Source: an uncultured Candidatus Binatia bacterium (lineage in GTDB: Bacteria; Desulfobacterota; Binatia; UBA9968; JAJDTQ01). From it: a stretch of 64,000 nt of DNA. A model generated the notes under the pieces. It was not told where the DNA came from. It was given only the letters and a program-made list of their open reading frames with translations, and did not search any database. Made by a program: the position numbers and the translations under genes. Location: contig OZ219754.1 in assembly GCA_964291295.2 (NCBI GenBank), forward strand, positions 64,001-128,000, given 5' to 3'. Shown here piece after piece: positions 30,100 through 45,893 of this stretch (positions are counted from its first letter, which is position 1; the number at the start of each line of letters is the position of its first letter).

Positions 30100-30169
30100 C
30101 GCGGTCCGCGGCCGGGCTGCGTATTTGAAGCGCCGCCCGATTTGTAGTAGCTATTCGGTCTCCGTTGCC

Positions 30170-32284
30170 ATGCCGAGACACAGCAGCCAGAAACCGGCGC
30201 CGCCGCTGCGCAACAAGGAGATCAGCTGGCTGGCGTTCAACGGGCGCGTCCTTCAGGAGGCAGCCGACACGTCGGTGCCACTACTGGAACGGCTGAGCTT
30301 CCTCGGCATCTTCTCGTCCAACCTCGACGAGTTCTTTCGCGTCCGGGTGGCCCACCTCCGGCGTCTTGAATCGTTCGGCCCGGGTGCCCGGAAGCTCGTG
30401 GGCGACGACCCGCCGGCGGTCCTGAAAGAGATCCACGCCGTCGTCCTGAAGCAGCAGGCGCTGTTCGAAAGCACCTATCGAAGCATCCTCGGGGAGCTCC
30501 ACCAACATGGCATCTCCATCATCGGGGAGAACGACCTCAATCCCGCCCAGGAAGCCTTCATCAGGGATTTCTACCGGCAGCGGCTGCGGCCAAGCCTGAT
30601 TCCCCTGATGGTCAATCATCTTGAGAAATTTCCGCAGTTGAAGGACCAGGCGATCTATCTGGCCATCTCCCTGTACAGCAGCAAGTCGCGCCGGTCGGAA
30701 TACGCGTTGATCGAGATTCCCACCGACGTGTTGTCGCGCTTCGTCATCCTGCCCAGGGTCGGCAACCGGGAGTACGTGATCCTGCTGGACGACGTCATCC
30801 GGTACTGTCTGAAGGAGATCTTCTCGATCTTTCCCTTCGACCAGTTCGAGGCCTACACCATCAAGCTCACGCGGGACGCGCAACTCGACCTCGACGACGA
30901 CCTCTACGGGAGCTACATCGAGAAGATCTCCAAGGGCCTCAAGCAGAGAAAGTCCGGGGCTCCGGTGCGGTTCATCTACGACAACCAGATCCCCCGGCGG
31001 CTGCTGAAGCTGCTCCAGCACAAGATGGGCCTCAACACCGGGTCCGGCCCGTTCATCCCCGGCGGGCGCTACCACAACTTCAAGGATTTCATGGGCTTCC
31101 CGCGCATCGGGCCGAAGCAGTTGTCGGCACCGCCGGTGCTGCCGCTGGGCCACGCCGACGTCGACGCGGCGCCCACGTTCTTCAAGGCCGTCCGCCGCCG
31201 GGACATCCTGCTGCACTATCCGTATCAGACCTTCGACTACCTCATCGAGTTCCTGCGGCAGGCCGCCATCGACCCCAAGGTCCGTTCCATCAAGATGACG
31301 CTGTACCGGGTGGCCCGCAACTCGAAGGTGGTCAACGCCCTGATCAACGCCAGCCGCAACGGCAAGCGAGTCACGGTGGTCATGGAGTTGCAGGCGCGCT
31401 TCGACGAGGCCGACAACGTCTACTGGTCGGAGCGGCTTCAGGAAGAAGGGGTTCGGGTCATCAACGGCGTGCCGGGACTCAAGGTCCATGCCAAGCTGAT
31501 CCTCATCACCCGCGTGTCGCATCGAAAGACCGTGCTCTATGCCAACATCGGCACCGGCAACTTCAACGAGACCACCGCGCGGGTCTATACCGATGACAGC
31601 CTGTTCACCGCCGACGAGCGCATCACCGTGGAGGTGAGCCGGGTGTTCGGCTTTCTCGAGAGCAACTACCGGCGCACCAACTTCAAGCACCTGCTGGTCT
31701 CGCCCTACGACACCCGCCGCAAGCTCACGAAGCTCATCGACACCGAGATCAAGAACGCCCGCAAGGGCCGGCCGGCCCATATCATCCTCAAGGTCAACAA
31801 CCTTGAGGACGCGGGCCTGATCCGGAAGCTCTACGAGGCCCATGAAGCGGGGGTCGCGTTGAGGCTCATGGTGCGCGGGATGTTCTCGCTGATCCCGGGC
31901 GTGAAGAACTTCAGCGAGGGCATCGAGGCCACGGCCATCCTCGACCGCTTCCTCGAACACTCCCGGGTGATGGCTTTCGCCAACGGCGGCGACGAGAAAC
32001 TGTACATCGCCTCCGGTGACTGGATGACCCGCAACGTGGACCACCGCGTGGAGGTGGCCTGCCCCGTCCATGACCCGGCCCTGAAGAAACAGCTCCGGGA
32101 CGTGCTGGACATCGTGTGGAACGACAACGTCAAGGCACGGGTGCTGGACAAGGACCTCGGGAACCGCTACCGGACCGCGGCCGGCGGCAAGAGAATCCGC
32201 GCCCAGGAAGCCATCCACACCTGCCTGAAGGAACTGCACCCGCCGAGGCCGGCGGCCAACGAGTCGCTGCGGCTGGCCCGGTGA
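30170..32284 (+). CDS. ppk1: Polyphosphate kinase 1
   Basis: EISWLAFN.RVLQEA, SNLDEFFRVRVA, DILLHYPY, EL.ARFDE, LKVHAK, GTGNFN, RFLEHSR. Confidence 0.98.
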   Translation: MPRHSSQKPAPPLRNKEISWLAFNGRVLQEAADTSVPLLERLSFLGIFSSNLDEFFRVRVAHLRRLESFGPGARKLVGDDPPAVLKEIHAVVLKQQALFESTYRSILGELHQHGISIIGENDLNPAQEAFIRDFYRQRLRPSLIPLMVNHLEKFPQLKDQAIYLAISLYSSKSRRSEYALIEIPTDVLSRFVILPRVGNREYVILLDDVIRYCLKEIFSIFPFDQFEAYTIKLTRDAQLDLDDDLYGSYIEKISKGLKQRKSGAPVRFIYDNQIPRRLLKLLQHKMGLNTGSGPFIPGGRYHNFKDFMGFPRIGPKQLSAPPVLPLGHADVDAAPTFFKAVRRRDILLHYPYQTFDYLIEFLRQAAIDPKVRSIKMTLYRVARNSKVVNALINASRNGKRVTVVMELQARFDEADNVYWSERLQEEGVRVINGVPGLKVHAKLILITRVSHRKTVLYANIGTGNFNETTARVYTDDSLFTADERITVEVSRVFGFLESNYRRTNFKHLLVSPYDTRRKLTKLIDTEIKNARKGRPAHIILKVNNLEDAGLIRKLYEAHEAGVALRLMVRGMFSLIPGVKNFSEGIEATAILDRFLEHSRVMAFANGGDEKLYIASGDWMTRNVDHRVEVACPVHDPALKKQLRDVLDIVWNDNVKARVLDKDLGNRYRTAAGGKRIRAQEAIHTCLKELHPPRPAANESLRLAR

Positions 32285-34397: not shown

Positions 34398-34489
34398 AAA
34401 GTTCCCATACTCGAATATTCCTGATTTGAGCCCCAGGAATTCCTGTGCTAGGCTCTGCACCGGTGCGCCGCCGGCGGCGGCACCCGCGG

Positions 34490-36217
34490 ATGCAGGAAAT
34501 GCAGACAAGCCCGGCAAGCGCGGCGCCCAGGGTTCCGCCCGTCCCCGCAATATCGGCCCTCTGGCGATGGCCCCGAGTGGACGGCTGGACCGCCGCTGTC
34601 CTGGCGGCGGCGGCGCTGTTCGCCAGCCCGCTCCTGGCGGTCCTGGGCATCGCCCTGGAAGGCAGCGGCGACGCTTGGGGACACCTTGGCTCGACCGTTC
34701 TCGCCAGCTATCTCCTTCAGACCCTGGGGCTCATCATCGGCGTCGGCGCCGGGGTTCTCGTCATCGGCGTCACCACGGCGTGGCTCGTCACCCGGTTCGA
34801 GTTCCCCGGACGCCCCGTGCTGCAGTGGGCGCTGTTGCTGCCGCTGGCCATGCCCGCGTACATCGCGGCGTACACCTACACCGACCTGCTCGAGTTCGCC
34901 GGTCCGGTGCAGACCGGCCTGCGCCAGTTGTTCGGGTGGCGAGGCCCGAGCGACTACTGGTTCCCGGAGGTTCGCTCCCTGGGCGGTGCCGTGACCTTCA
35001 TGTCCCTGGTGCTCTACCCCTACGTCTACCTGCTCGCCCGTGCGGCTTTCGTCGAACAGTCCCGGAATCTGTGGGACGCCGCGCGCGGGCTCGGACTCCG
35101 GCCCTGGCCATGCTTCCTGCGAGTGGGACTGCCGTTGGCGCGGCCGGCCATCGTCGCCGGCGTGCTGCTGGCCCTGATGGAAACCCTGAACGATTTCGGC
35201 ACCGTGGACTACTTCGCGGTACAGACGCTGACCATCGGCGTCTACCGGGTCTGGTTCGGCATGAACAACGCGCCCGCCGCCGCGCAGTTGGCGTCCCTGG
35301 TGCTGGTTCTGGTGCTGGTGATGTCCACCCTGGAGCGCACCGCCCGGGGCCGGCGGCGCTACCCGTTCAACCACAAGCCACGCCATCCCCTGGCAAGGCT
35401 GCGCGGCATCCGCGGGATGCTGGCGTTGCTCACCTGCGCGGCGCCGCTGACCCTGGGCTTCGTGGTGCCGGCGCTGCTGATGGCGGTGTCCGCGGCCGGC
35501 GGCGCCGGCTCCTTCACCGGCGTCGACACGCTGACCCTGGCCTTCAACAGCGTGGCCGTGGCCACCCTGGCAGCCTTGGCCTGCCTGTGCGCAGGTCTCT
35601 TCCTGGCCTACGGCGCGCGTCTGTCCGGGACCGCCCTGGTCCGCTGCGCGACCCGTGTGGCGAGCGTCGGCTATGCCGTGCCGGGAGTGGTACTGGCGGT
35701 CGGCGTCCTCACGACGGCGGCAGCGCTGGACAATGCCATCGACGGGTTCATGCGAACCCACTTCCAGGTCTCCACGGGGTTGATCCTCAGCGGCACGCTG
35801 TGCGCCCTGGTCTTCGCCTGCACGGTGCGGTTTCTGGCCCTGTCCTCCGGCTCGCTGGAAGCGGGGTTGACCCGGATCACGCCCAACATGGACGCCGCCG
35901 CGCGATCCCTGGGACAGCGTCCCGGCGGGATCCTGAGACGGGTCCACTTTCCGCTGCTGCGGGGCAGCCTCCTGACCGGCGCCATGCTGGTTTTTGTCGA
36001 CGCCATGAAGGAGTTGCCCATGACGCTGCTCCTGCGTCCATTCAACTTCAACACGCTGGCCACCCACGTCTACGAGTATGCCTCTTACGAAGCCTTCGAT
36101 CAGGCCGTGATCGCGGCCCTCGCCATCGTGGTCACCGGGCTGGCCCCGGTCATCGTTCTCAGCCTGCGCCTGGACGGCGCCGGACGACTCTCCCCGACCG
36201 CGAGACCGGCGTCGTGA
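34490..36217 (+). CDS. Fe3+ ABC transporter permease (FbpB/SfuB type)
   Basis: LPLAMPAYI.AY.YTD, YPYVYLLARAAF, METL.DFGTV, two EAA-like loops, MKELP.TL.LRPFNF.TLAT. Confidence 0.92.
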   Translation: MQEMQTSPASAAPRVPPVPAISALWRWPRVDGWTAAVLAAAALFASPLLAVLGIALEGSGDAWGHLGSTVLASYLLQTLGLIIGVGAGVLVIGVTTAWLVTRFEFPGRPVLQWALLLPLAMPAYIAAYTYTDLLEFAGPVQTGLRQLFGWRGPSDYWFPEVRSLGGAVTFMSLVLYPYVYLLARAAFVEQSRNLWDAARGLGLRPWPCFLRVGLPLARPAIVAGVLLALMETLNDFGTVDYFAVQTLTIGVYRVWFGMNNAPAAAQLASLVLVLVLVMSTLERTARGRRRYPFNHKPRHPLARLRGIRGMLALLTCAAPLTLGFVVPALLMAVSAAGGAGSFTGVDTLTLAFNSVAVATLAALACLCAGLFLAYGARLSGTALVRCATRVASVGYAVPGVVLAVGVLTTAAALDNAIDGFMRTHFQVSTGLILSGTLCALVFACTVRFLALSSGSLEAGLTRITPNMDAAARSLGQRPGGILRRVHFPLLRGSLLTGAMLVFVDAMKELPMTLLLRPFNFNTLATHVYEYASYEAFDQAVIAALAIVVTGLAPVIVLSLRLDGAGRLSPTARPAS

Positions 36218-36316
36218 GGCGGCGACAGCGCCCCGGGCGCCGGCTCCCGGCGGGCCGGTGGCGCGGGCTCCCGCGACGATTCGTGGACGCGGACAGGCTG
36301 GCCCTGGTTCGTCGTC

Positions 36317-38287
36317 TCAGACAGGCTGCCCGTTTTTCTCATCCAGGGCCGGCGCGGTGAGAAGCTGCACCGCACGGTCCAGGTCCGCATGGCTCCCCAG
36401 GAGCACCAGGATGTCCTGCGGCCTCAGTTGGCAGTCCATGGGCGGGCTCTCCACCGAGACGCCTTCCCGCACCAGCGCCAGGACGCTGGTGCGGCCCTCG
36501 AAGTGCGCCTTCAGCTCCCCGAGGGTATGGCCCGCCGCGGGCGCATCCTGCTCCACCAGGAGCGTATCGGCGGTGGCGCCGGTGAGAAACTGGCTGAACC
36601 GAGCCAGACTCTTGCCCTCCAGCCTCTGGCCGCGCAACATGCTGTAGCCCTCCCTGCGCACCATCTGCACCTGCAGATTGATGACGTTGCGCGGGACGTG
36701 GTACTCCCGCAGCACCCGCGCGAAGATCTCCACCGAGGTCTCGAACTCCTCGGGGATCACCTCATTGGCGCCCAAGGACATCAACCGCGGGATCTCGGCC
36801 ACGTACCGCGTCCGCACGATGATGTAGAGGTCGGGATTCAACCGCCGCGCGTGCCAGACGATACGCGACGTCGCCTGGGGATCGCTGATGGCCACCACCA
36901 GAACACGCGCGCGCGCCACGCCCATGGCCGCCAGCACCGCCGGACGCGTGCCGTCGCCGAACCGGACCCTCTCACCTTCGTCGCGCGCCGCCTCCGGGTT
37001 GAGGTCGAGTATCCGGTGAGGAATGGCCACCTCGCGCAAGACCCGGGCCAGGTTCCGCCCGTTGAGCCCATAGCCCACGATGAGGACGTGTCCGGCCGCG
37101 TCGTCCGCCGGCGCCCCGGCCTCGGCGTCGCCGCGGTGCAGCACGAAGCCCAGACGGCTTCCGCCCAGGACCAGCAGCGGGGTGGCCAGCATGCTGAGAA
37201 TCGCGGTGGCGAGAAAGATCTGCTCCTCGCCTGGCGAGAGGAGACGGAAGGCGCCGCCCATCCGGGCAAGGATGAGCGAGAACTCCCCGACCTGAGCCAG
37301 CGTCAGACCCAACGCCAGACCAAGCCGCAGCGATCGCTGGAGAAAGGAGAAGATGGCGGTGACAAGGCCGCCCTTGAGCATCACCAGCAGCAGCCAAGAG
37401 GCGGCCACGAGGACAAACTCCTGGCCGATGAAGTCGAGATCCACCTGCGTGCCGATGGAGATGAAGAAGATGCCGGCGAAACTGTCCCTCAGCGGAAGGA
37501 CGTCGGCCACCACCTGGTGGCTGTATTCCGAATCGGAAATGAGGAGTCCGGCAATGAACGAACCCAGGGCCAGGGAGATGCCGGACTGAAAGGCCAGCCA
37601 GGCGGTGCCCAGGCAGATGAGCAGCACGAACAGGACAAAGACCTCCTGGCTCCGAAGCCGCGCCACCTGGTGGAGGAGCCACGGCACCAGGAAACGCGAG
37701 GAGGTGAAGATGATGGCCACGGCGAGAACGGATTTGCCCAGCGTGACGGCCACCACCTGGAGGGACAACGCCGCGGTCTCCCCCAGCACCGGCACCGACA
37801 GCATCATGGGCACGGCGATGATGTCCTGGAGCAGCAGGACGCCCACCGCCAACCGCCCGTGAAGGGTCGAAAGCTCGTCCCGGTCGCTGTAGATCTTGAG
37901 CACGATGGCGGTGCTGCTGAGGGCGGCGAGCAGACCGAAGAAAAAGCTGATGCGCGGGGCGTAGCCCAGGTGAAGACCCACCGCCATGACCCCCAGGACG
38001 GTCAAGGCCACCTGCAGGAGGCCGCCCGTGAGGATCAACCCTTTCAGGGCGAGAAAACGCTCGAAGGAGAATTCGAGGCCGATGGAGAAGAGCAGCAGCA
38101 CGATGCCGATCTCCGCCAGGAGATCGAGTTCGGCGCCGTGGCCGATGACGTCGAAGCCATGCGGCCCCATGACCACGCCCACCGCAAGAAAACCGATGAC
38201 CGTGGGGAGCCGCAGCTTGTGGAAGGTGAAGACCGTGGCCACGGTGAGGGCCAGGACGGTCACCAGACTCGTGAGCACGTCAAGCAT
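36317..38287 (-). CDS. CPA2/Kef-type cation:proton antiporter with TrkA-N and TrkA-C domains
   Basis: AEIGIVLLLFSIGLE, LSSTAIVLK, QD, QVGEFS, then VGYG.NG Rossmann fold and an RCK-C tail. Confidence 0.92.
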   Translation of the reverse strand: MLDVLTSLVTVLALTVATVFTFHKLRLPTVIGFLAVGVVMGPHGFDVIGHGAELDLLAEIGIVLLLFSIGLEFSFERFLALKGLILTGGLLQVALTVLGVMAVGLHLGYAPRISFFFGLLAALSSTAIVLKIYSDRDELSTLHGRLAVGVLLLQDIIAVPMMLSVPVLGETAALSLQVVAVTLGKSVLAVAIIFTSSRFLVPWLLHQVARLRSQEVFVLFVLLICLGTAWLAFQSGISLALGSFIAGLLISDSEYSHQVVADVLPLRDSFAGIFFISIGTQVDLDFIGQEFVLVAASWLLLVMLKGGLVTAIFSFLQRSLRLGLALGLTLAQVGEFSLILARMGGAFRLLSPGEEQIFLATAILSMLATPLLVLGGSRLGFVLHRGDAEAGAPADDAAGHVLIVGYGLNGRNLARVLREVAIPHRILDLNPEAARDEGERVRFGDGTRPAVLAAMGVARARVLVVAISDPQATSRIVWHARRLNPDLYIIVRTRYVAEIPRLMSLGANEVIPEEFETSVEIFARVLREYHVPRNVINLQVQMVRREGYSMLRGQRLEGKSLARFSQFLTGATADTLLVEQDAPAAGHTLGELKAHFEGRTSVLALVREGVSVESPPMDCQLRPQDILVLLGSHADLDRAVQLLTAPALDEKNGQPV

Positions 38288-38457
38288 GACTGGTTCGGAA
38301 CGGGAGTCCGAAGATCCCGGCTCTCCGTCACTCCCGCGGAAGCGAGTGTCCCGGAAGCGCGGGGCGGGGACCGCGGCACCGGTCGGGTGTTGAATTCCAC
38401 ATGCGCTTCGGTGAGGATAGACGATTTGCGGCCCCAGGAACAGCAACCGAGGAGACG

Positions 38458-39207
38458 ATGGACGAAAACGACAAGGTCATGGGCATCGACATCGGCGGCA
38501 CCGGAGTCAAGGCGGCGCTGGTGGACACCCGGAGCGGCGCAATGACGACGGAACGCGTACGGCTGCCCACGCCCCAACCGGCGACACCAGCGGCTGTCAT
38601 GGAAGCCATTGAAAGCCTGCGGCGGCAACTGCAATGGCGGGGGACGGTGGGCTGCGGCTTTCCGGGTCTGGTCAAGAAGGGCCGGGTCGAGCGGGCCCCG
38701 AACCTCGACTCATCCTGGGTCGGCTATGATCTGGCCCGACAGCTTCAGGCGCAACTGGCGGTGCCGCGAGTCGCCATCGGCAACGACGCCGATGCCGCCG
38801 GACTGGCGGAGTTCCGGTTCGGCGCCGGCCGGAACGTGAACGGGACCGTGATGATCGTCACCCTGGGAACCGGCATCGGCTCGGCCGTCTTTCGCGACGG
38901 CGTGCTCTTGCCCGACACCGAACTGGGCCATCTCGAAATGCACGGCAAGGTGGCGGAAAAGTGGGCCGCCGCCAGCGTCCGCGCAAACCGGAACCTGAGC
39001 TGGAAGAAATGGGCCCGGCGACTCAACGAATATCTGGTCCACGCGGAGTACCTCCTGGGCGTCGACCTGTTCATCATCGGCGGAGGGGTCAGCAAGAAGC
39101 CCGAGAAGTTCTTCCCTTACCTCCAGGGCGTGGGCTGCCGGGTGGAAGCCGCGTGTCTCGGAAACGCCGCCGGTGTCATCGGCGCCGCCCTGTTCCCCCT
39201 GCGCTAG
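38458..39207 (+). CDS. ppgK: Polyphosphate glucokinase (ROK family)
   Basis: GIDIGGTGVK.A.VD, R.PTPQPATP, NDADAAGLAE, TLGTGIGSA, TELGH, IIGGGVSK. Confidence 0.9.
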   Translation: MDENDKVMGIDIGGTGVKAALVDTRSGAMTTERVRLPTPQPATPAAVMEAIESLRRQLQWRGTVGCGFPGLVKKGRVERAPNLDSSWVGYDLARQLQAQLAVPRVAIGNDADAAGLAEFRFGAGRNVNGTVMIVTLGTGIGSAVFRDGVLLPDTELGHLEMHGKVAEKWAAASVRANRNLSWKKWARRLNEYLVHAEYLLGVDLFIIGGGVSKKPEKFFPYLQGVGCRVEAACLGNAAGVIGAALFPLR

Positions 39208-40771
39208 TCGTCCGGTGCCGGATACGCGGCAGCCAGGGCAGCAGCAACGTGTACGGGGGCTCGGTTTCGCGGAGGCTCCGACCGAACCGGGCCAACAGAT
39301 CCGGAACCTTCGCGCATGCCAGTTCCCGCTCCACCCGCATGCGCGACGACAGCACCTCGGCGGCCGGGCACGCACGGCTGGCCCCGGCCCGGGACAGGAC
39401 GGCGGCGAAGTCCCGGGTGCGGGCCTCGTGCACCGTGAGATCCTGGATCCGGCCCAACGCGTCCTGGAGTTTTTTCAGGCGCGGCACCACATCCCGCGCC
39501 TCGGGCATCAACTCCCCGAGCATCTCCAGAAGATAGCGCAGCTGCTTGCATTCGATCCGAAGGGCGTGGAAGGAAGCGGCATCCGTCGGCTCCCGGAGGC
39601 GCGCCCCCTGTTCCAGCATGTTCCGGCACTTCCTCGCCACGCGCGCTGCCGCCAGCGGCAGGATGGGCTTCGTACCCCGTGGTCCCGTTCCGAGGACGCC
39701 GGCGTCCTGCACGGATGAGCGCCAGCACCGCAACGCGGCGTGCCAGTCGTCCGAACCCATGACTTCCACCAGCCGGCGGTGGGCCGCCGCCCGCTCGCGC
39801 GCGGCAAACTCGAACAGCGGGGTGAGGTCTTGCGCCAGGGGCGGCGCGAGCATGCCCCGGTAGGCGGTCTGCCGCTCCAGGTACACGTCCAGGTCTCTCA
39901 GCGCGTTGGTGGACTTGCCCAGCCAGGACAGCGTCTTCCTGAGCCTGTCCACGGGCTCAGGGGAAAAGACGCCCCGGAGCTGTCCCAGACAGGATCGGGC
40001 ACGGCGCACGGCCACCCGGAAATCATGCAGGAACTCCGTGTCGGTATCGTGGAGCATGCCTTCCTGGTTGGCGCGAACCACCGGGTACTGATCACGAATC
40101 ACGGCGCCCAGGGCCTCGGCGGCAGTCATGGAGGCGTCGAGCCGGGTCCGGGCGGCGGTGGCCGTGCCCAGGGGATCCAGGGACAGGGCCTCCAGTGCCC
40201 GCCGGTAGCGGGAGCCGCTTCCGGCGCGCACCCCGCGCTTTTCCCACCACTCGCATACCTCCCGGAAGATATTCCTGTAGCCCCGTACCTGCCGGACCAC
40301 GACCGAGTCCGCCAGCCGCGCACTCCGCCTCCCGTCCGCCACTTCGTCCTGGTTCAACAAGACGCGCAGGACCGTCTTCTGATCGTGGTTCCACCGGTAC
40401 CAGATGCGCACTCGTGAGCGCACCGAAAACAGCCGGAGCAGGGCCCGGTTCCGGGTCAGCGGCGCCAACTCGTCCCGCAACGCGCCAGGCGGCAGGCCGG
40501 CGGCGAATTCCGGAAGGCCGTCGAACTCCATGCGGCTCCGCGGGTCCGACCCATCCAGGCTCCCCAGGTGCAGCACACCCCCGGAACTCCACAGGGCGCG
40601 CGAATGGGCGAAGAGCCGCCCGTCGTGAGTGTCGAGGTACACGGCCTCGCGGACCAGGCGCGGCCCCTGGCGCAACGCGTACTGATGGCGCAGCTCGCGC
40701 AGCAATCGTGGCCCGGACCGGCCCCGGGGAATATCGAACGTCCGCTCCGAGACTGTGCCGGACAGTGTCAC
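39176..40771 (-). CDS. CYTH-like + CHAD domain protein (polyphosphate-binding)
   Basis: N-terminal YLDT.D.RL; CHAD motifs EFLHDFRVAVRR.RS, RDLDV, H.LRI.CK.LRYLLE, LQD.LG..QD. GTG start overlaps the ParA stop. Confidence 0.88.
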   Translation of the reverse strand: MTLSGTVSERTFDIPRGRSGPRLLRELRHQYALRQGPRLVREAVYLDTHDGRLFAHSRALWSSGGVLHLGSLDGSDPRSRMEFDGLPEFAAGLPPGALRDELAPLTRNRALLRLFSVRSRVRIWYRWNHDQKTVLRVLLNQDEVADGRRSARLADSVVVRQVRGYRNIFREVCEWWEKRGVRAGSGSRYRRALEALSLDPLGTATAARTRLDASMTAAEALGAVIRDQYPVVRANQEGMLHDTDTEFLHDFRVAVRRARSCLGQLRGVFSPEPVDRLRKTLSWLGKSTNALRDLDVYLERQTAYRGMLAPPLAQDLTPLFEFAARERAAAHRRLVEVMGSDDWHAALRCWRSSVQDAGVLGTGPRGTKPILPLAAARVARKCRNMLEQGARLREPTDAASFHALRIECKQLRYLLEMLGELMPEARDVVPRLKKLQDALGRIQDLTVHEARTRDFAAVLSRAGASRACPAAEVLSSRMRVERELACAKVPDLLARFGRSLRETEPPYTLLLPWLPRIRHRTTSAGGTGRRR

Positions 40772-41559
40772 CCTCCCCGTGCGGGAACCGGAATAAACCG
40801 CAACAGGGCGGCCAACTCCTCCCAAAGCTCCCGATAGCGCTTCGTTGCCGTGCCGGAGGGCCGGAAGGCCGGCAACGGCGCCCGCACCAGGCCCATGCTC
40901 TCGACATCCGCGGCATAGGGAATCACGGCCGTCAGCCAATTCCGGGACTCCTCCCTCATGGCCGCCATGGTCGCCCGGTGCATCCTCTTGCGCGCCTCCA
41001 CCATGGAGAAGAAAGCCCGCATCCGGTTCTCGTCATGACCTTTGCGCCGGATGAAGGCCCGCAGGATGGAGTAGGCCCGAACGGCCAGCGTTGACGGGAC
41101 CACCGGGACCACCAGCAGGTCCGCCGCCATGAAGATGCCCTCGGCCAGCAGGGAGGCGGTGGCGGGGCTGTCCAGCACGATCAGGTCGTACTCGGCCCGG
41201 AACGGATCGAGTATCTCCCGCAGGCGTTTCCTGGAACGTCTGACCCGCCCGAGTGCCGCATCCAGATGCCGGTGGGACCAGTCCGCCGGCAGCAGATCCA
41301 GCCGCTCGTAGTCGGTTCCCTTGATGTTGTCGGAAAACTTCGTCCGCCCTTCAAGATAGACCGTTCCGGCCTTCCTGAGCCTGGGCTTGATACGAAAGTA
41401 GTAGGTGGTCGAACTCTGCGGATCAAGATCGCAAACGAGCGTCCGGAGTCCGGATTCGGCACTGAGGTAGGCCAGATTCACGGCGGTGGCGGTCTTTCCG
41501 ACACCACCCTTCAGGTGATAGACGGCCATGACCCTGCCCGGTCCGGACTTGCCCCGCAT
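40768..41559 (-). CDS. ParA/MinD-family ATPase
   Basis: Deviant Walker A KGGVGKT, DLDPQ, YD.IVLDSP; no parB adjacent. Confidence 0.92.
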   Translation of the reverse strand: MRGKSGPGRVMAVYHLKGGVGKTATAVNLAYLSAESGLRTLVCDLDPQSSTTYYFRIKPRLRKAGTVYLEGRTKFSDNIKGTDYERLDLLPADWSHRHLDAALGRVRRSRKRLREILDPFRAEYDLIVLDSPATASLLAEGIFMAADLLVVPVVPSTLAVRAYSILRAFIRRKGHDENRMRAFFSMVEARKRMHRATMAAMREESRNWLTAVIPYAADVESMGLVRAPLPAFRPSGTATKRYRELWEELAALLRFIPVPARGG

Positions 41560-41639
41560 CGTCAAGGATCCAGCCAGGTCCGGCGGACCGCCGTGGCGGT
41601 TGGTGGCCACGCCCCCGGTGGCCACCAACCATGCGCGCT

Positions 41640-41948
41640 TCAGCTTCGGGGTTTTCTGGGCGGGACGATGGCGTCCTTGCAGGCTTTCGCAACGCGAAAC
41701 TTGACGACTCTTTTTGCCGGTATCTTGATCGCTTGCCCCGTCGCCGGATTGCGCCCCATGCGCGCCTTCCTGTTTGTCTTCACGAGCCGTCCGAGGCCCG
41801 GCACGATGAAAACCCCGTTCTTCTTGACCTCCTTGACCGCCAGCGTCGCCAAGTTGTCGAGGAAGTCCTTTGCGACCCGTTTGTTCAGGTCGCACTTGGC
41901 CGCCAAATCGGTCACTATCTGTGCCTGCGTCATCTTCGTAGCTGCCAT
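41640..41948 (-). CDS. hup: HU family histone-like DNA-binding protein
   Basis: PGLG...RKARMGRNPATGQAIKIPAK.VVKF. Confidence 0.93.
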   Translation of the reverse strand: MAATKMTQAQIVTDLAAKCDLNKRVAKDFLDNLATLAVKEVKKNGVFIVPGLGRLVKTNRKARMGRNPATGQAIKIPAKRVVKFRVAKACKDAIVPPRKPRS

Positions 41949-42001
41949 GCCTCTCCCTTCCATGTCCTCCGAACCACCGAAGGCAAATCAAAATGAGCCG
42001 T

Positions 42002-42030
42002 AATATACGCGCATTTGCTCGAACTGTAAA
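42002..42030 (-). promoter_or_regulatory. Sigma70 promoter for HU-ParA-CHAD
   Basis: TTTACA-N17-TATATT. Confidence 0.65.
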
Positions 42031-42092: not shown

Positions 42093-43598
42093 CTACGGAA
42101 TACTCGCCCGCCAGTCGGGCAAGCGCGGGTGCGGGCGGCGGAACCCGTGGATGATATCGCTGTGGGCGAGGTCGTCATACCGGAACGAAGGCGGGTCCGA
42201 GTTGATCCGGGAGTGATACCGCATCAGTGTCAGATACCGTTTGACCAACTCGGGCAGCAGGAAGTTTCGGCGCACGTGCTCCCGTCCCTGCCGGCCGAGA
42301 GCGGCCGCCGCCTCGCCGTCATCCAGCACCGTTGCCATGTGCGAAGCGATGGCATCCACGTCCAGCGGCTCCACCAGGTAACCTGTCACGCCGTCGACGA
42401 TCTGCCGCTTGATGCCGCCCACCCGGGAACCGATCACCGGCGTCCCGTGCCAGAGTGCTTCTGTCACGACCAGCCCGAACCCTTCCCGGGTGGACACATG
42501 CACGAAGCCCCGCGCGATGCGCATCAGGGCGCCCACCACCCGGTCGTTGTCCTCGACGTTGACCCAGAACCGCACATCCGGGTGGCCGTCCGCCTGCCGC
42601 TTCAGGTCGTTCAGCACCCCCTCGCCCTCGGGGTCGTCGGACGCGGTGTTCCCGATGAAGAGGAGGCAGGGCTTCGGGTCCCGGCGCCGCCCCTCGCAAA
42701 GGCGCTGGAAGGCCTTCAGTATCGTGCCCTGGTTCTTGTGAACGTCGTAACGGGAAATGGCCGCGAGCAGGGGCCGTTCGGGGTCCACGCCGTGGGCCTG
42801 GAACAGGGGTTGCAGAATGTCCAGGGCTTCCGTCCGGGTATGGTGCCGGTTCTTCTCCGCCAGGGGGTCGATGCAGGGCATGATCTCGTACACCGGAATC
42901 TTGAGCCCCGGGCCCACGAACTCGTGCATGGTGAAGACGGCGCCGTCACAGTGGTTGACGTAGGGCAACAGGAAGCGCCAGACGGTCCGGTCGGGAGCCG
43001 AGGTATCGATGTGGCAGCGCCAGATGACGTTGCCGAGAATCGGCGCGTTCATGATCATGGCCGCCGGCTGCGGATCGTGGATGACGGTGAGATCCGACGC
43101 GATGAAGGTATTGCAGGCGTTCTCGTCGATGGTGTCGAGGTAGGCGCCGAAGATCTCCTCCAGGGAGATGGGCGGCCCCGCTCCCTGCAGCAGGTTGTGA
43201 AACTTCTTGGTGACCTGGAAGAACTCACGGTTGCCGCGAATGGTGCACCACCGGGCATCGACACCCAGCAGCCGGGCCAGGGGAACGGCGCTGCGAAGCA
43301 TCTCGGCCACTCCGCCGCCCACGGCCGTGGAGTTGACGTTCACCCAGCCGTGCCCTGTCAACGGCTCCGCAAGACGCCTGAGCTCGTCCAGCCCGGCCCT
43401 GCCGATGACCGCCTCATAGTCGGCGAGGCCGAAGGCTTGCTCCGGCCGATGTTCCTCCAGGCCGGCAACGGTCTCGTCCCTGTGGGCTTCGGGCGGCGGT
43501 GGGGGCGCGGGGAACCCCGGAGCGCCGGTGGTTTCGTTCAAGAACGTCAAGGCCTGCCCTCCTGTGCCATGAGAATGGGCAACGATTTGCCCGACCAT
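42093..43598 (-). CDS. treT: GT4 glycosyltransferase, trehalose synthase TreT-like
   Basis: NST..GGGVAEML, TKKFHNLLQG, IHDPQP, WRCHID, REGFGLVVTEALW. Start uncertain. Confidence 0.8.
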   Translation of the reverse strand: MVGQIVAHSHGTGGQALTFLNETTGAPGFPAPPPPPEAHRDETVAGLEEHRPEQAFGLADYEAVIGRAGLDELRRLAEPLTGHGWVNVNSTAVGGGVAEMLRSAVPLARLLGVDARWCTIRGNREFFQVTKKFHNLLQGAGPPISLEEIFGAYLDTIDENACNTFIASDLTVIHDPQPAAMIMNAPILGNVIWRCHIDTSAPDRTVWRFLLPYVNHCDGAVFTMHEFVGPGLKIPVYEIMPCIDPLAEKNRHHTRTEALDILQPLFQAHGVDPERPLLAAISRYDVHKNQGTILKAFQRLCEGRRRDPKPCLLFIGNTASDDPEGEGVLNDLKRQADGHPDVRFWVNVEDNDRVVGALMRIARGFVHVSTREGFGLVVTEALWHGTPVIGSRVGGIKRQIVDGVTGYLVEPLDVDAIASHMATVLDDGEAAAALGRQGREHVRRNFLLPELVKRYLTLMRYHSRINSDPPSFRYDDLAHSDIIHGFRRPHPRLPDWRASIP

Positions 43599-43650
43599 TA
43601 AAAGAGTTACGGACGAATGTCAACCGCCGTGGCGGGAACGAAAAGAGTTC

Positions 43651-43679
43651 TTGCCAGAGGGCCGGGGTTGAAGTATCCT
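43651..43679 (+). promoter_or_regulatory. Putative sigma70 promoter for the DUF502 gene
   Basis: TTGCCA-N17-TATCCT. Confidence 0.5.
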
Positions 43680-43712
43680 CTCACCACTTCGTTCACTCGA
43701 CCGACTCCCAGC

Positions 43713-44390
43713 ATGCATGCCAGAAAGCCCCATTTTCTGCGAAATACGATGATCACCGGGATCCTGATCCTGATCCCGCTGTTCGTCACCTACATCCTCA
43801 TCGCGTTCCTGTTCAACCTGCTGGGTAACGCGGGCGCGCCGATCATCCGCGGCTTCCTGGCCTTCCTCGACCTGGGCGAGATTCGTTGGTTGACGCCACT
43901 GGTTCCGTTCATCAACCTGGTCATCGTCCTGTCGCTGATCTTCTTCATCGGGCTGGTGGGCACCAACATCGTCGGCCGGCGCATCCTGGCGACGCTCAAC
44001 CAGGTGGTCATGCGTCTCCCTCTGGTGAGCACCGTCTACGGCGCGGTCAAGCAGGTGGTGGAGACCCTCCAGGGTCCTCACCGCAGCTTCCAGCGGGTGG
44101 TGCTGCTGGAGTATCCCAAACAGGGGGTGTGGATGATGGGGCTCGTGGCCACCCGCAGAACCGACACCTTCAACGTCTCCCCCGCCGAGACCCTGCTGGC
44201 CGTCTTCGTGCCGACGACGCCGAACCCCACCTCCGGCTTTCTCGTACTGGTGCCCGAGGAAGAGGTTGTCGAAACCGACTACACCGTCGAGGAAGCCTTC
44301 AAGTTCATCGTCTCGTCCGGCATCGTCGGCAGAGAGTTTGCGCCGCCGGAACGGGTGCCCGAGCGGGTAACGGAGGCCGTTCCGGAATAG
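43713..44390 (+). CDS. DUF502 membrane protein
   Basis: Two TM segments; P.V..VY..VKQ, VL.EYP..G, VFVPTTPNPTSGFL, EEA.K.I.S.G. Confidence 0.92.
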   Translation: MHARKPHFLRNTMITGILILIPLFVTYILIAFLFNLLGNAGAPIIRGFLAFLDLGEIRWLTPLVPFINLVIVLSLIFFIGLVGTNIVGRRILATLNQVVMRLPLVSTVYGAVKQVVETLQGPHRSFQRVVLLEYPKQGVWMMGLVATRRTDTFNVSPAETLLAVFVPTTPNPTSGFLVLVPEEEVVETDYTVEEAFKFIVSSGIVGREFAPPERVPERVTEAVPE

Positions 44391-44405
44391 CGCCGGGAGC
44401 TCTCC

Positions 44406-45893
44406 TCACGCCGGCATCCCGGCGGAAGGTTCGTTGGGTGGCGGCGCGGGCTCCGGGGTCCCACCGGGGTCGGCGAAGCGGTCGTTGAGGGTCTGCACGT
44501 AGCCGTTGGCTTCGGTGATGACCTGAGAGAGTTGCCGACGGGTGCTCTGGCTCCAGCCGTACGGGCGGACGGTGAAGGTGGCCCGGAACAGGCGGGTGCT
44601 CTTGCGGAAACCGGCGGCAAGAGCATCCAGCACCGTCCCGTCGCGGCCGCTGTCCAGTTCCGCTCCGAGCCGCTTGAGCAGGCGGCGGGTGACAAGCCGC
44701 CGGAAGGTATGATGGATATAGCCGGCGGCCCCGGCCACCACCGCCAGCGCCGCCCAGGCCCACCCTGATTCGGTCCACAGAGCGGTCCAGAAGGGATGCG
44801 AGAACCGCAGGCCGTTCCATTCTCCGGTCCACAGGGTCCAGATCAGGGCGATGACGACAAGCCCCGCGAAGGCGATGCCGTCCAGCCAGCGGACCCGCCG
44901 CCGCCATTCCGTGATCATCGCCTGCAGGCGCGGCACCAGACGCAACTCGATATCACGGGCGCCCTGCTCGAGCACTCCCATGACGCGGTAGGCCCGGTCC
45001 ACCTCCACCTGCCGGATGCGCCGGTGGATCTCGACCAGGTCGACGTCGCGCTTCTGCTCGAAGCGCGCGCGCAGCCCCTCGTCCTCGATGGAGATGGCCG
45101 CGCCGGGACTGTAGATGCAATAGAACCGCCCCGCGGTAAGCCCCTTCTGCGCCAGCGCCCGCTGCCACGAGCCCACGATGTCCTCCGGGTTGTTCTCGCG
45201 GGCCGTGTGGTCCATCTGGTTCAGCACATACAGGAACTTGCTCGAATCGGTCCGGTGAATCGTCTCCGCCACCAGGTGCTGGAGGGTGTCCTGCATGGTG
45301 CCGGGTTCCGGATGCCTGGCGTCGAAGAACACCAGCACGAGATCCGCAAGGTCCATGATGTGGTCGGTGACGCGCAAGGTTTCCGTCCGCTGCTGGTCGG
45401 CGTCGAACCCCGGCGAGTCGATGATGATCTTGCCCCGAAGCACCTCGCTCGGGCAGGTCTTGAGCTGGAGATAGGCATCGATACGGCTTCCTTCGCCCGC
45501 GCTGGTCTCCTCGATGGCCCGGCTCATCTTGTAGAACGGAAACCGGGGGTCGGCGTCCAGCGCCACCCCCGGCAGCACCCGGACACCTTCCTCCCTGCCG
45601 AAGCACAGCACCGTAAACCGGTCGTCCACCGCCTGGTTGCCGGTGGGCTGCACCGGCTGGGCCAGGAAATCGTTGATGAACGTCGACTTGCCGGACGAGT
45701 AGGTGCCCAGGACGGCCACCAGCGGCCACCACGGAATGCGCGTGGCATGGGACTCGTCGGGGCCAAGAAACCCCAACCGGCGCGAGATGGCGTCGAGCTT
45801 GCGGAAACTCCGAACCGCGCTCAGAAGAATCGGGTTCTCCGTGCGCAGGTGATTCTCCAGGCTTTCCAGCCTCGCTTCCAGTTCAGCCGGCAC
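44406..45893 (-). CDS. Dynamin-superfamily (EHD-like) NTPase with two TM helices
   Basis: G1 GTYSSGKST, G3 DSPG, G4-like NQMD; two hydrophobic segments near the C-terminus. Confidence 0.82.
   Translation of the reverse strand: MPAELEARLESLENHLRTENPILLSAVRSFRKLDAISRRLGFLGPDESHATRIPWWPLVAVLGTYSSGKSTFINDFLAQPVQPTGNQAVDDRFTVLCFGREEGVRVLPGVALDADPRFPFYKMSRAIEETSAGEGSRIDAYLQLKTCPSEVLRGKIIIDSPGFDADQQRTETLRVTDHIMDLADLVLVFFDARHPEPGTMQDTLQHLVAETIHRTDSSKFLYVLNQMDHTARENNPEDIVGSWQRALAQKGLTAGRFYCIYSPGAAISIEDEGLRARFEQKRDVDLVEIHRRIRQVEVDRAYRVMGVLEQGARDIELRLVPRLQAMITEWRRRVRWLDGIAFAGLVVIALIWTLWTGEWNGLRFSHPFWTALWTESGWAWAALAVVAGAAGYIHHTFRRLVTRRLLKRLGAELDSGRDGTVLDALAAGFRKSTRLFRATFTVRPYGWSQSTRRQLSQVITEANGYVQTLNDRFADPGGTPEPAPPPNEPSAGMPA

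Follow-up and report, generated by a model that had tools for sequence, protein, structure and literature searches.

A window of 64,000 nucleotides from an uncultured Candidatus Binatia bacterium (assembly GCA_964291295.2, contig OZ219754.1, positions 64,001 to 128,000) encodes an orphan ParA-type ATPase and, directly behind it on the minus strand, a protein that joins a CYTH-like domain to a CHAD domain. The ATPase and the CHAD protein are very likely functionally coupled in the ParA subclade that includes the window, because their adjacency is retained through three gene orders, translational coupling is frequent, the ATPases constitute a dedicated clade and polyphosphate genes are recurrent neighbors. 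By analogy with McdA/McdB, the pair is read as a two-gene ParA/adaptor module that would act on polyphosphate granules, a reading held with about even confidence. The pair is thus put forward as a concrete two-gene candidate for the spacing and inheritance of these granules; if the reading is true, it would provide CHAD proteins with a cellular function. An earlier note on this DNA had proposed the same role for the pair and had placed an upstream HU gene in the same operon. The features of the pair, in window coordinates, are:

40768-41529, minus strand: orphan ParA/Soj-like ATPase, 253 residues (AAA_31 E = 3e-29, also CbiA and MipZ)
39176-40771, minus strand: CYTH-like plus CHAD protein, 531 residues (PF05235, 166.7 bits)
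40187-40747, minus strand: N-terminal CYTH/TTM-like beta-barrel domain, residues 9-195 (structure model and Foldseek)
39266-40123, minus strand: CHAD helical-bundle domain, residues 217-502, a predicted polyphosphate-binding module (PF05235, Foldseek)

Genes at the locus were called by profile searches (Pfam, NCBIfam), which were needed to pick the real genes because the region is 62-70% G+C and yields abundant long spurious open reading frames. The GTG start codon of the CHAD gene (40771-40769) overlaps the ParA TGA stop codon (40770-40768) as GTGA, as the earlier note had recorded, and the GTG start is backed by the genus relatives, in which the frame opens no more than a few codons ahead of M(M)TLS.... 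The description of the ATPase as lacking a parB also held in a search of the genome: ParB_N has two matches there, both distant, one at contig position 1,052,774 (adjoining a Soj-like ParA) and one at 776,523. The CHAD gene at the locus is the only one in the source genome.

The sequence of the ATPase is that of a ParA with intact catalytic motifs. The Pfam AAA_31 and CbiA matches are above their cut-offs, and the closest solved relatives are the ParA/Soj structures 8ray (E = 2e-17), 6iub (6e-16) and 1wcv (2e-15), followed by MinD 1ion (3e-8). No NCBIfam family cut-off is reached; the ParA_partition equivalog scores 86.5 bits versus a cut-off of 180. The deviant Walker A motif KGGVGKT is intact, and all 21 clade sequences share K7 and G8-T13, with the signature lysine kept. 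Also invariant over the 21 members are D34 and D36 (DLDPQ), which we take to be the Walker A'/switch aspartates, and D120 (LIVLD), presumably the Walker B aspartate. The clade proteins share many conserved basic residues in their C-terminal half (R151, R180, K181, H184, R216). R180 is invariant and aligns with the arginine of the 'YDGR' stretch of Thermus Soj, an arginine assumed here to bind DNA.

Within the genus the pair is part of a gene order that is mostly kept. Of the other 24 genus genomes, 20 carry an orthologue of the window ParA with 68-80% identity, and 19 of these 20 ParA loci retain the order TreT-like glycosyltransferase, HU-like gene, ParA, CHAD. The distance between the ParA stop and the CHAD start varies from an overlap of 4 nucleotides to a separation of a few tens of nucleotides, and the gene for polyphosphate-glucose phosphotransferase (PPGK) stays adjacent to CHAD. 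The 16 genomes from other genera of the order contain only ordinary ParAs (26-36% identity).

The synteny survey suggested by the earlier note found the ParA-CHAD linkage conserved far beyond the genus. A pattern scan that took a single genome for each species, with an alignment of the genus ParAs as the query, returned 80 loci, none of them from the genus itself. The 13 best loci (34-49% identity) belong to Thermodesulfobacteriota, Actinomycetota, Alpha- and Gammaproteobacteria and Acidobacteriota. A full-length CHAD homologue lies directly upstream on the same strand in 8 of these 13, and in several of the eight the CHAD stop and the ParA start overlap as ATGA or GTGA. The other five are without CHAD, one of them (L043) with only 374 nucleotides of upstream sequence. 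None of the 67 ordinary-ParA loci from the scan has CHAD within ~4 kb. The window protein and the 13 group together in a 100-ParA tree, as a clade with a Shimodaira-Hasegawa-like approximate likelihood ratio test (SH-aLRT) support of 100 and a stem length of 1.6 changes per site.

A profile of this clade, made from an alignment of 21 of its sequences, was searched in 400 genomes drawn evenly from the phylum to which the window belongs. The scores are bimodal, with 18 other genomes at 307 bits or more and the next best at 161 bits. CHAD is adjacent in 16 of the 18, 15 as CHAD->ParA and one in convergent orientation (L136), compared to none of the 11 ordinary ParA loci in the draw and none of 78 ordinary loci overall. 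Three arrangements therefore exist: ParA->CHAD in the genus, CHAD->ParA in the majority, often with an ATGA or GTGA overlap, and the convergent pair. Retention of adjacency through three gene arrangements points to selection on the pairing. Long open frames that resembled CHAD-ParA or aminotransferase-ParA fusions were rejected, because the upstream gene is read in another frame than ParA and the fusion is an artefact of high G+C.

The clade profile was also searched at E <= 1e-60 in draws of 401 genomes each from Actinomycetota and Pseudomonadota. A clade ParA is encoded in 23 of the actinomycetotal genomes, 12 of them CHAD-adjacent, and in 78 of the pseudomonadotal genomes (80 genes). Five pseudomonadotal clade genes lie directly behind a two-domain PPK2 of ~490-500 residues (L189, L190, L191, L192, L195), and the genomes of these five loci carry a CHAD gene elsewhere. 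In the Pseudomonadota draw, a CHAD gene is present anywhere in the genome in 67 of 78 genomes with a clade ParA versus 115 of 323 without one, an odds ratio of 11 for which the Fisher p-value overstates the case, as kin are not independent, and in which the tally includes the unpublished genome G1251. A rooted tree of 105 sequences places CHAD-adjacent members on nearly all deep branches, and the groups with a PPK2, an aminotransferase or RnfH/TruA as the neighbor (the latter two described below) are nested inside the clade. The CHAD-ParA pairing therefore looks ancestral to the clade, followed by losses or by an exchange of the partner. The window ParA falls in a subclade of 30 rows (SH-aLRT 96), and 29 of the 30 are CHAD-adjacent.

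The partner protein has two recognizable domains. PF05235 matches residues 224-451 with 166.7 bits against a gathering score of 25.6. In the structure model, which has a predicted local distance difference test score of 85.8, residues 217-502 match the C. tepidum CHAD-polyphosphate complex 6qva (Foldseek E = 2e-14, target-normalized template modeling [TM] score of 0.89, 32% identity). Invariant CHAD columns are H249, R252, R256, R257, R259, R292, H402, R405, K409 and R412. Other CHAD proteins bind polyphosphate and localize to granules, according to the available text of two reports (PMC6537752; PMC9239181). Residues 9-195 of the model match TTM/CYTH folds (5a60, which is full-length Escherichia coli YgiF, 7ns8, 2gfg and 3tvl; Foldseek E = 2e-9 to 1e-3), and the Pfam CYTH profile gives no match to the window protein. 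The ExExK motif that defines the CYTH/TTM family is degenerate in the first strand, which reads E9-R-T-F-D13. It is degenerate in 10 of 11 aligned CHAD partners, the remaining one keeping ExExK and matching Pfam CYTH, and for this reason the CYTH-like domain is likely not an enzyme. An N-terminal Arg/Lys-rich stretch was considered as a ParA stimulator and not used; it occurs only in the longest open reading frames of some distant loci, whose start codons are unverified. The ParA-linked CHAD protein of Rhodothalassium salexigens (L035:2160-3992) ends in a ~70-residue Lys/Ala/Pro-rich tail that resembles histone H1 or AlgP.

Polyphosphate genes recur around the pair. A SixA-like histidine phosphatase directly follows ParA in seven loci (L032, L041, L120, L122, L126, L127, L130) and a stand-alone CYTH gene does so in five (L035, L036, L121, L122, L134); one locus has a Nudix gene (L120) and one an adjacent PPK2 (L130). 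The earlier note had looked to linkage with ppk and sixA genes. The sixA part is borne out by these neighbors, and PPK2 recurs among them; the PPK1 part is not, as the eight out-of-genus CHAD-ParA loci have no PPK1 match in flanks of up to 4 kb. In the window, ppk1 encodes all four PPK1 domains and lies 6.9 kb from the locus, in agreement with the ~7 kb given earlier, and its proximity to the pair is weak support.

In the proposed mechanism, the CHAD helical bundle would coat polyphosphate granules and ATP-bound ParA dimers would bind the nucleoid non-specifically. Contact between the granule-bound CHAD protein and ParA would stimulate ATP hydrolysis and release ParA, and granules would climb the ParA gradients, which would space them evenly and ensure inheritance by both daughters. 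We infer polyphosphate binding by the CHAD protein, DNA binding by ParA, the contact between the two and the effect on granule position. The wider proposition, that an ancient phylum-spanning ParA clade is dedicated to polyphosphate granules as an inorganic-polymer organelle and positions or partitions them through exchanged adaptors, CYTH-like/CHAD proteins mostly and PPK2 in some Pseudomonadota, is more tentative and falls just short of an even chance. If it is true, no ATP-driven system that acts on polyphosphate granules was known before.

Several observations weigh against these proposals. CHAD adjacency depends on the lineage: 11 of the 23 actinomycetotal clade ParAs are not next to CHAD, and seven of these 11 follow a class-V aminotransferase; in Pseudomonadota, 8 of the 80 clade genes (counted on all 80) are CHAD-adjacent, and seven adjoin RnfH and/or TruA (L201, L203, L207-L210, L213). 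Because of this dependence the ATPase is not tied to CHAD everywhere, and its role may be more general. One genome of the genus (G020; L008/L113) has ~24 kb between ParA and CHAD-PPGK, probably through an insertion. Two others (G009, L118; G023, L117) are without ParA and keep TreT-HU-CHAD-PPGK, so the CHAD gene survives alone. In these two the match of the CHAD gene to the window protein is limited to residues 213-517, in frames that are open (487 and 358 residues, respectively); ParA and the N-terminal CYTH-like half are both absent, probably by one deletion. Their joint loss is suggestive of the CYTH-like half as the side that contacts ParA, though one event probably explains it. Where Soj has the 'IPRNVR' stretch, the window ParA reads 'IPYAADVE' and has lost the arginines. 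N-terminal basic peptides stimulate other ParAs, and the window CHAD protein and its genus relatives are without one. Granule spacing in Synechococcus is independent of its sole ParA-family protein in the available text of a 2026 preprint, and a ParA is therefore not universally needed.

The non-CHAD contexts have features of their own. In seven actinomycetotal loci (L165, L168, L169, L170, L172, L173, L177) the end of the aminotransferase gene overlaps the ParA start or directly adjoins it. At least three of the aminotransferase-ParA loci have an AraC-type regulator nearby, and this context is without an evident link to polyphosphate. A large gammaproteobacterial subgroup, which comprises the seven RnfH/TruA loci above and probably many of L215-L256, scores ~280-315 bits, adjoins RnfH and/or TruA genes and is without CHAD within 2 kb; elsewhere in the genome, most of its members have a gene for a CHAD-only protein of ~315 residues.

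The minus strand of the locus runs from a TreT-like GT4 glycosyltransferase gene through the HU-like gene to ParA and CHAD. The features that surround the pair are:

42093-43598, minus strand: TreT-like GT4 glycosyltransferase (profile search)
42002-42030, minus strand: sigma-70-like promoter match TTTACA-17-TATATT 5' of the HU-like gene (consensus match only, 10 of 12 positions)
41640-41948, minus strand: HU/IHF-family gene, 102 residues from the ATG at 41948, reading frame open to 41963 (PF00216, 77.5 bits)
41598-41630, minus strand: G+C-rich hairpin directly 3' of the HU stop, without a U tract (fold and 21 of 21 genus loci)
41544-41582, minus strand: inverted repeat in the leader 5' of the ParA start (GGACTTG...CAAGTCC in relatives, seen by eye)
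38401-39207, plus strand: polyphosphate-glucose phosphotransferase (PPGK), convergent with the CHAD gene (ROK family; NF045942 equivalog)
30125-32284, plus strand: ppk1, polyphosphate kinase 1, given as context (PP_kinase_N, middle, C_1 and C domains)

The PPGK gene scores 293.9 bits against the NCBIfam NF045942 cut-off of 250, and its 3' end overlaps that of the CHAD gene by 32 nucleotides; the convergence on and overlap with a polyphosphate glucokinase gene that had been noted earlier are thus correct. The ppx and ppk2 genes are megabases from the locus in the source genome.

The HU-like gene is 110 nucleotides upstream of ParA on the same strand. Its product matches PF00216 with 77.5 bits (cut-off 22.4), is third among the genome's four PF00216 matches and falls beneath every NCBIfam HU/IHF equivalog cut-off (best 57.2 versus 111 bits). 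These scores identify the gene as a divergent HU/IHF paralogue. Three sigma-70-like sites occur in the region compared to 0.5 expected from shuffles, and one of them precedes HU. The G+C-rich hairpin at the HU stop has a 13-bp stem that all 21 of the examined genus loci retain, with compensatory changes. The case for it rests on conservation and not on energy, because the fold z-score of the HU-ParA spacer is only -0.9, which is not significant in G+C-rich sequence; the hairpin is a candidate terminator-like or RNA-stabilizing element. The earlier note had a single promoter serve HU, ParA and CHAD. A promoter-like site 5' of HU is indeed present, and the conserved hairpin that separates HU from ParA speaks against one transcription unit. 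A second conserved inverted repeat (GGACTTG...CAAGTCC), seen by eye near the ParA start in 21 aligned intergenic sequences, is a candidate for a regulator site or for a leader structure. A sigma-54 site in the ParA leader (TGGCAC-N5-TTGC, also by eye) was rejected, since the match in the window is partial and relatives do not keep it.

HU is one of the points at which other explanations of the locus part from a ParA/adaptor module. HU, ParA and CHAD could form one operon, as the earlier note had it, and HU could be an active part of the system, tying granules and ParA to the nucleoid. The position of HU 110 nucleotides upstream on the same strand, the promoter-like site before it, the shared order in 19 of 20 genus loci and the H1-like tail of the L035 partner, a hint that the module can be joined by a DNA-binding element, all fit this arrangement. 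The phyletic distribution does not. Among 60 genomes drawn from the order (E <= 1e-15), the paralogue occurs in 26 of the 27 that are further members of the genus and in 1 of the 33 that belong to other genera, and the eight out-of-genus CHAD-ParA loci gave no HU match in flanks of up to 4 kb. Genus member G013 keeps HU at 93% identity without a ParA orthologue and without any CHAD match. The identity of HU within the genus (83-96%) is also much above that of ParA (68-80%) or CHAD (56-72%), as a gene under separate constraint would show, and the conserved hairpin lies between it and ParA in 21 of 21 loci. A role for HU as a component is therefore improbable, and the HU-like gene is probably a separate genus-specific neighbor and not a part of the module. 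It is similarly very unlikely that ParA and CHAD are not coupled directly, with ParA serving DNA segregation or another process and the adjacency reflecting co-regulation or chance conservation. The 72 of 80 pseudomonadotal and 11 of 23 actinomycetotal clade ParAs that are not CHAD-adjacent, together with the CHAD-only genes that persist without ParA, are what such independence predicts. It leaves unaccounted for an adjacency that spans three phyla and three gene orders and often comes with 4-nucleotide overlaps (0 of 78 ordinary ParA loci are CHAD-adjacent), the presence of CHAD-adjacent members on nearly all deep branches, and the identity of an alternative partner, PPK2, as another polyphosphate protein.

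The remaining explanations accept the coupling and differ on what the pair does. It could control granule biogenesis or turnover and not position, with ParA as an ATP-dependent switch that acts via the CYTH-like/CHAD protein to gate nucleation, size or the access of enzymes (PPK, PPGK, PPK2, SixA-like, Nudix) to the polymer. The recurrent neighbors are in keeping with a switch of this type, since they are polyphosphate-metabolism enzymes (SixA-like in seven loci, CYTH in five, PPK2, Nudix, PPGK) and not DNA-binding proteins; moreover, some clade ParAs are paired directly with an enzyme, PPK2, and the CHAD partner carries a triphosphatase-related CYTH-like domain. The degenerate ExExK in 10 of 11 aligned partners makes that domain an unlikely enzyme, however, characterized ParA/MinD proteins are chiefly spatial organizers in the available texts, and R180, aligned with the Soj 'YDGR' arginine, is invariant. 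Control of turnover is accordingly judged unlikely. Alternatively, polyphosphate could itself be the matrix that ParA binds, replacing or competing with DNA, and the pair could organize something else or couple nucleoid state to polyphosphate. The conserved basic residues R151, R180, K181, H184 and R216 and the replacement of the Soj 'IPRNVR' arginines would suit a polyphosphate-binding surface, as would the association of granules with the nucleoid described for several species in the available literature; the partner already has a dedicated polyphosphate-binding domain, which would render a second one in ParA redundant, and little credence is given to this possibility. The ParA/adaptor module on polyphosphate granules is retained as the preferred reading.

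Comparison with known systems places the pair close in design to McdA/McdB. In both, the gene of a small orphan ParA-type ATPase adjoins that of a cargo-bound partner that is not a ParB, the cargo is a nucleoid-associated cytoplasmic inclusion, and a cargo-bound stimulator drives the ParA gradients, the cargo and the gradients being what is proposed here. The two systems are distinct in that the CHAD protein is not homologous to McdB, the window ParA is nearer to Soj-type structures (E = 2e-17 to 2e-15) than to the McdA structures 6non and 6noo (E = 1e-8), and the deviant Walker A motif of the window ParA has its signature lysine. The cargo here would be an inorganic polymer granule. No carboxysome genes were seen in the open reading frames scanned around the locus. 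The ATPase shares its fold family, its size of ~250 residues, its ATPase motifs and the invariant 'YDGR'-aligned arginine with the type Ib ParA of ParABS (Soj-Spo0J). It differs in that the locus is without ParB or parS, the Soj-ParB pair of the genome being elsewhere, in its ParA_partition score (86.5 versus 180) and in its membership of a separate clade (SH-aLRT 100). The partner resembles the CHAD 'phosins' and CYTH-CHAD proteins, a group with C. tepidum CHAD (6qva, 32% identity, target-normalized TM score of 0.89), E. coli YgiF (5a60), whose two-domain architecture it has, and Streptomyces PptA (6rn5). Unlike these CHAD and CYTH-CHAD proteins, its subgroup has lost ExExK and is encoded with its own ParA ATPase.

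Two published systems bear on the same problem. In Pseudomonas aeruginosa, the histone H1-like protein AlgP helps to space polyphosphate granules, and the even spacing of nucleoid-associated granules is the task assigned to it in the available text (PMC9239181). AlgP is a passive DNA and polyphosphate binder without an ATPase, and it has no sequence relation to the ParA or the CHAD gene. A conserved folD-ppk-parA-CHAD cluster is in print for Acidithiobacillus, with the ParA read as a plasmid-partition protein (PMC10892726). The likeness is a parA-CHAD neighborhood next to ppk in one genus; a joint function, the cross-phylum breadth, a distinct clade or granule positioning is not proposed in the available text of that paper (PMC10892726). 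A literature search on polyphosphate granules, CHAD and ParA (supplements excluded) found no proposal of a ParA for polyphosphate granules and none of a functional ParA-CHAD pair. In the available text of a 2025 review on polyphosphate and chromatin, ParA/MinD ATPases are named only for other cargos, and the word polyphosphate is absent from that of a 2024 review of the ParA/MinD family. A 2026 preprint states in its available text that the mechanism of polyphosphate localization in its model species "remains undefined".

Two further observations concern other parts of the window. Two long overlapping open reading frames on opposite strands (644 and 539 residues) at 34426-36360 have no Pfam match at E <= 1e-4. 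At 43617-45893, a DUF502 membrane protein gene (43617-44390, plus strand) adjoins a dynamin-family GTPase gene (44406-45893, minus strand).

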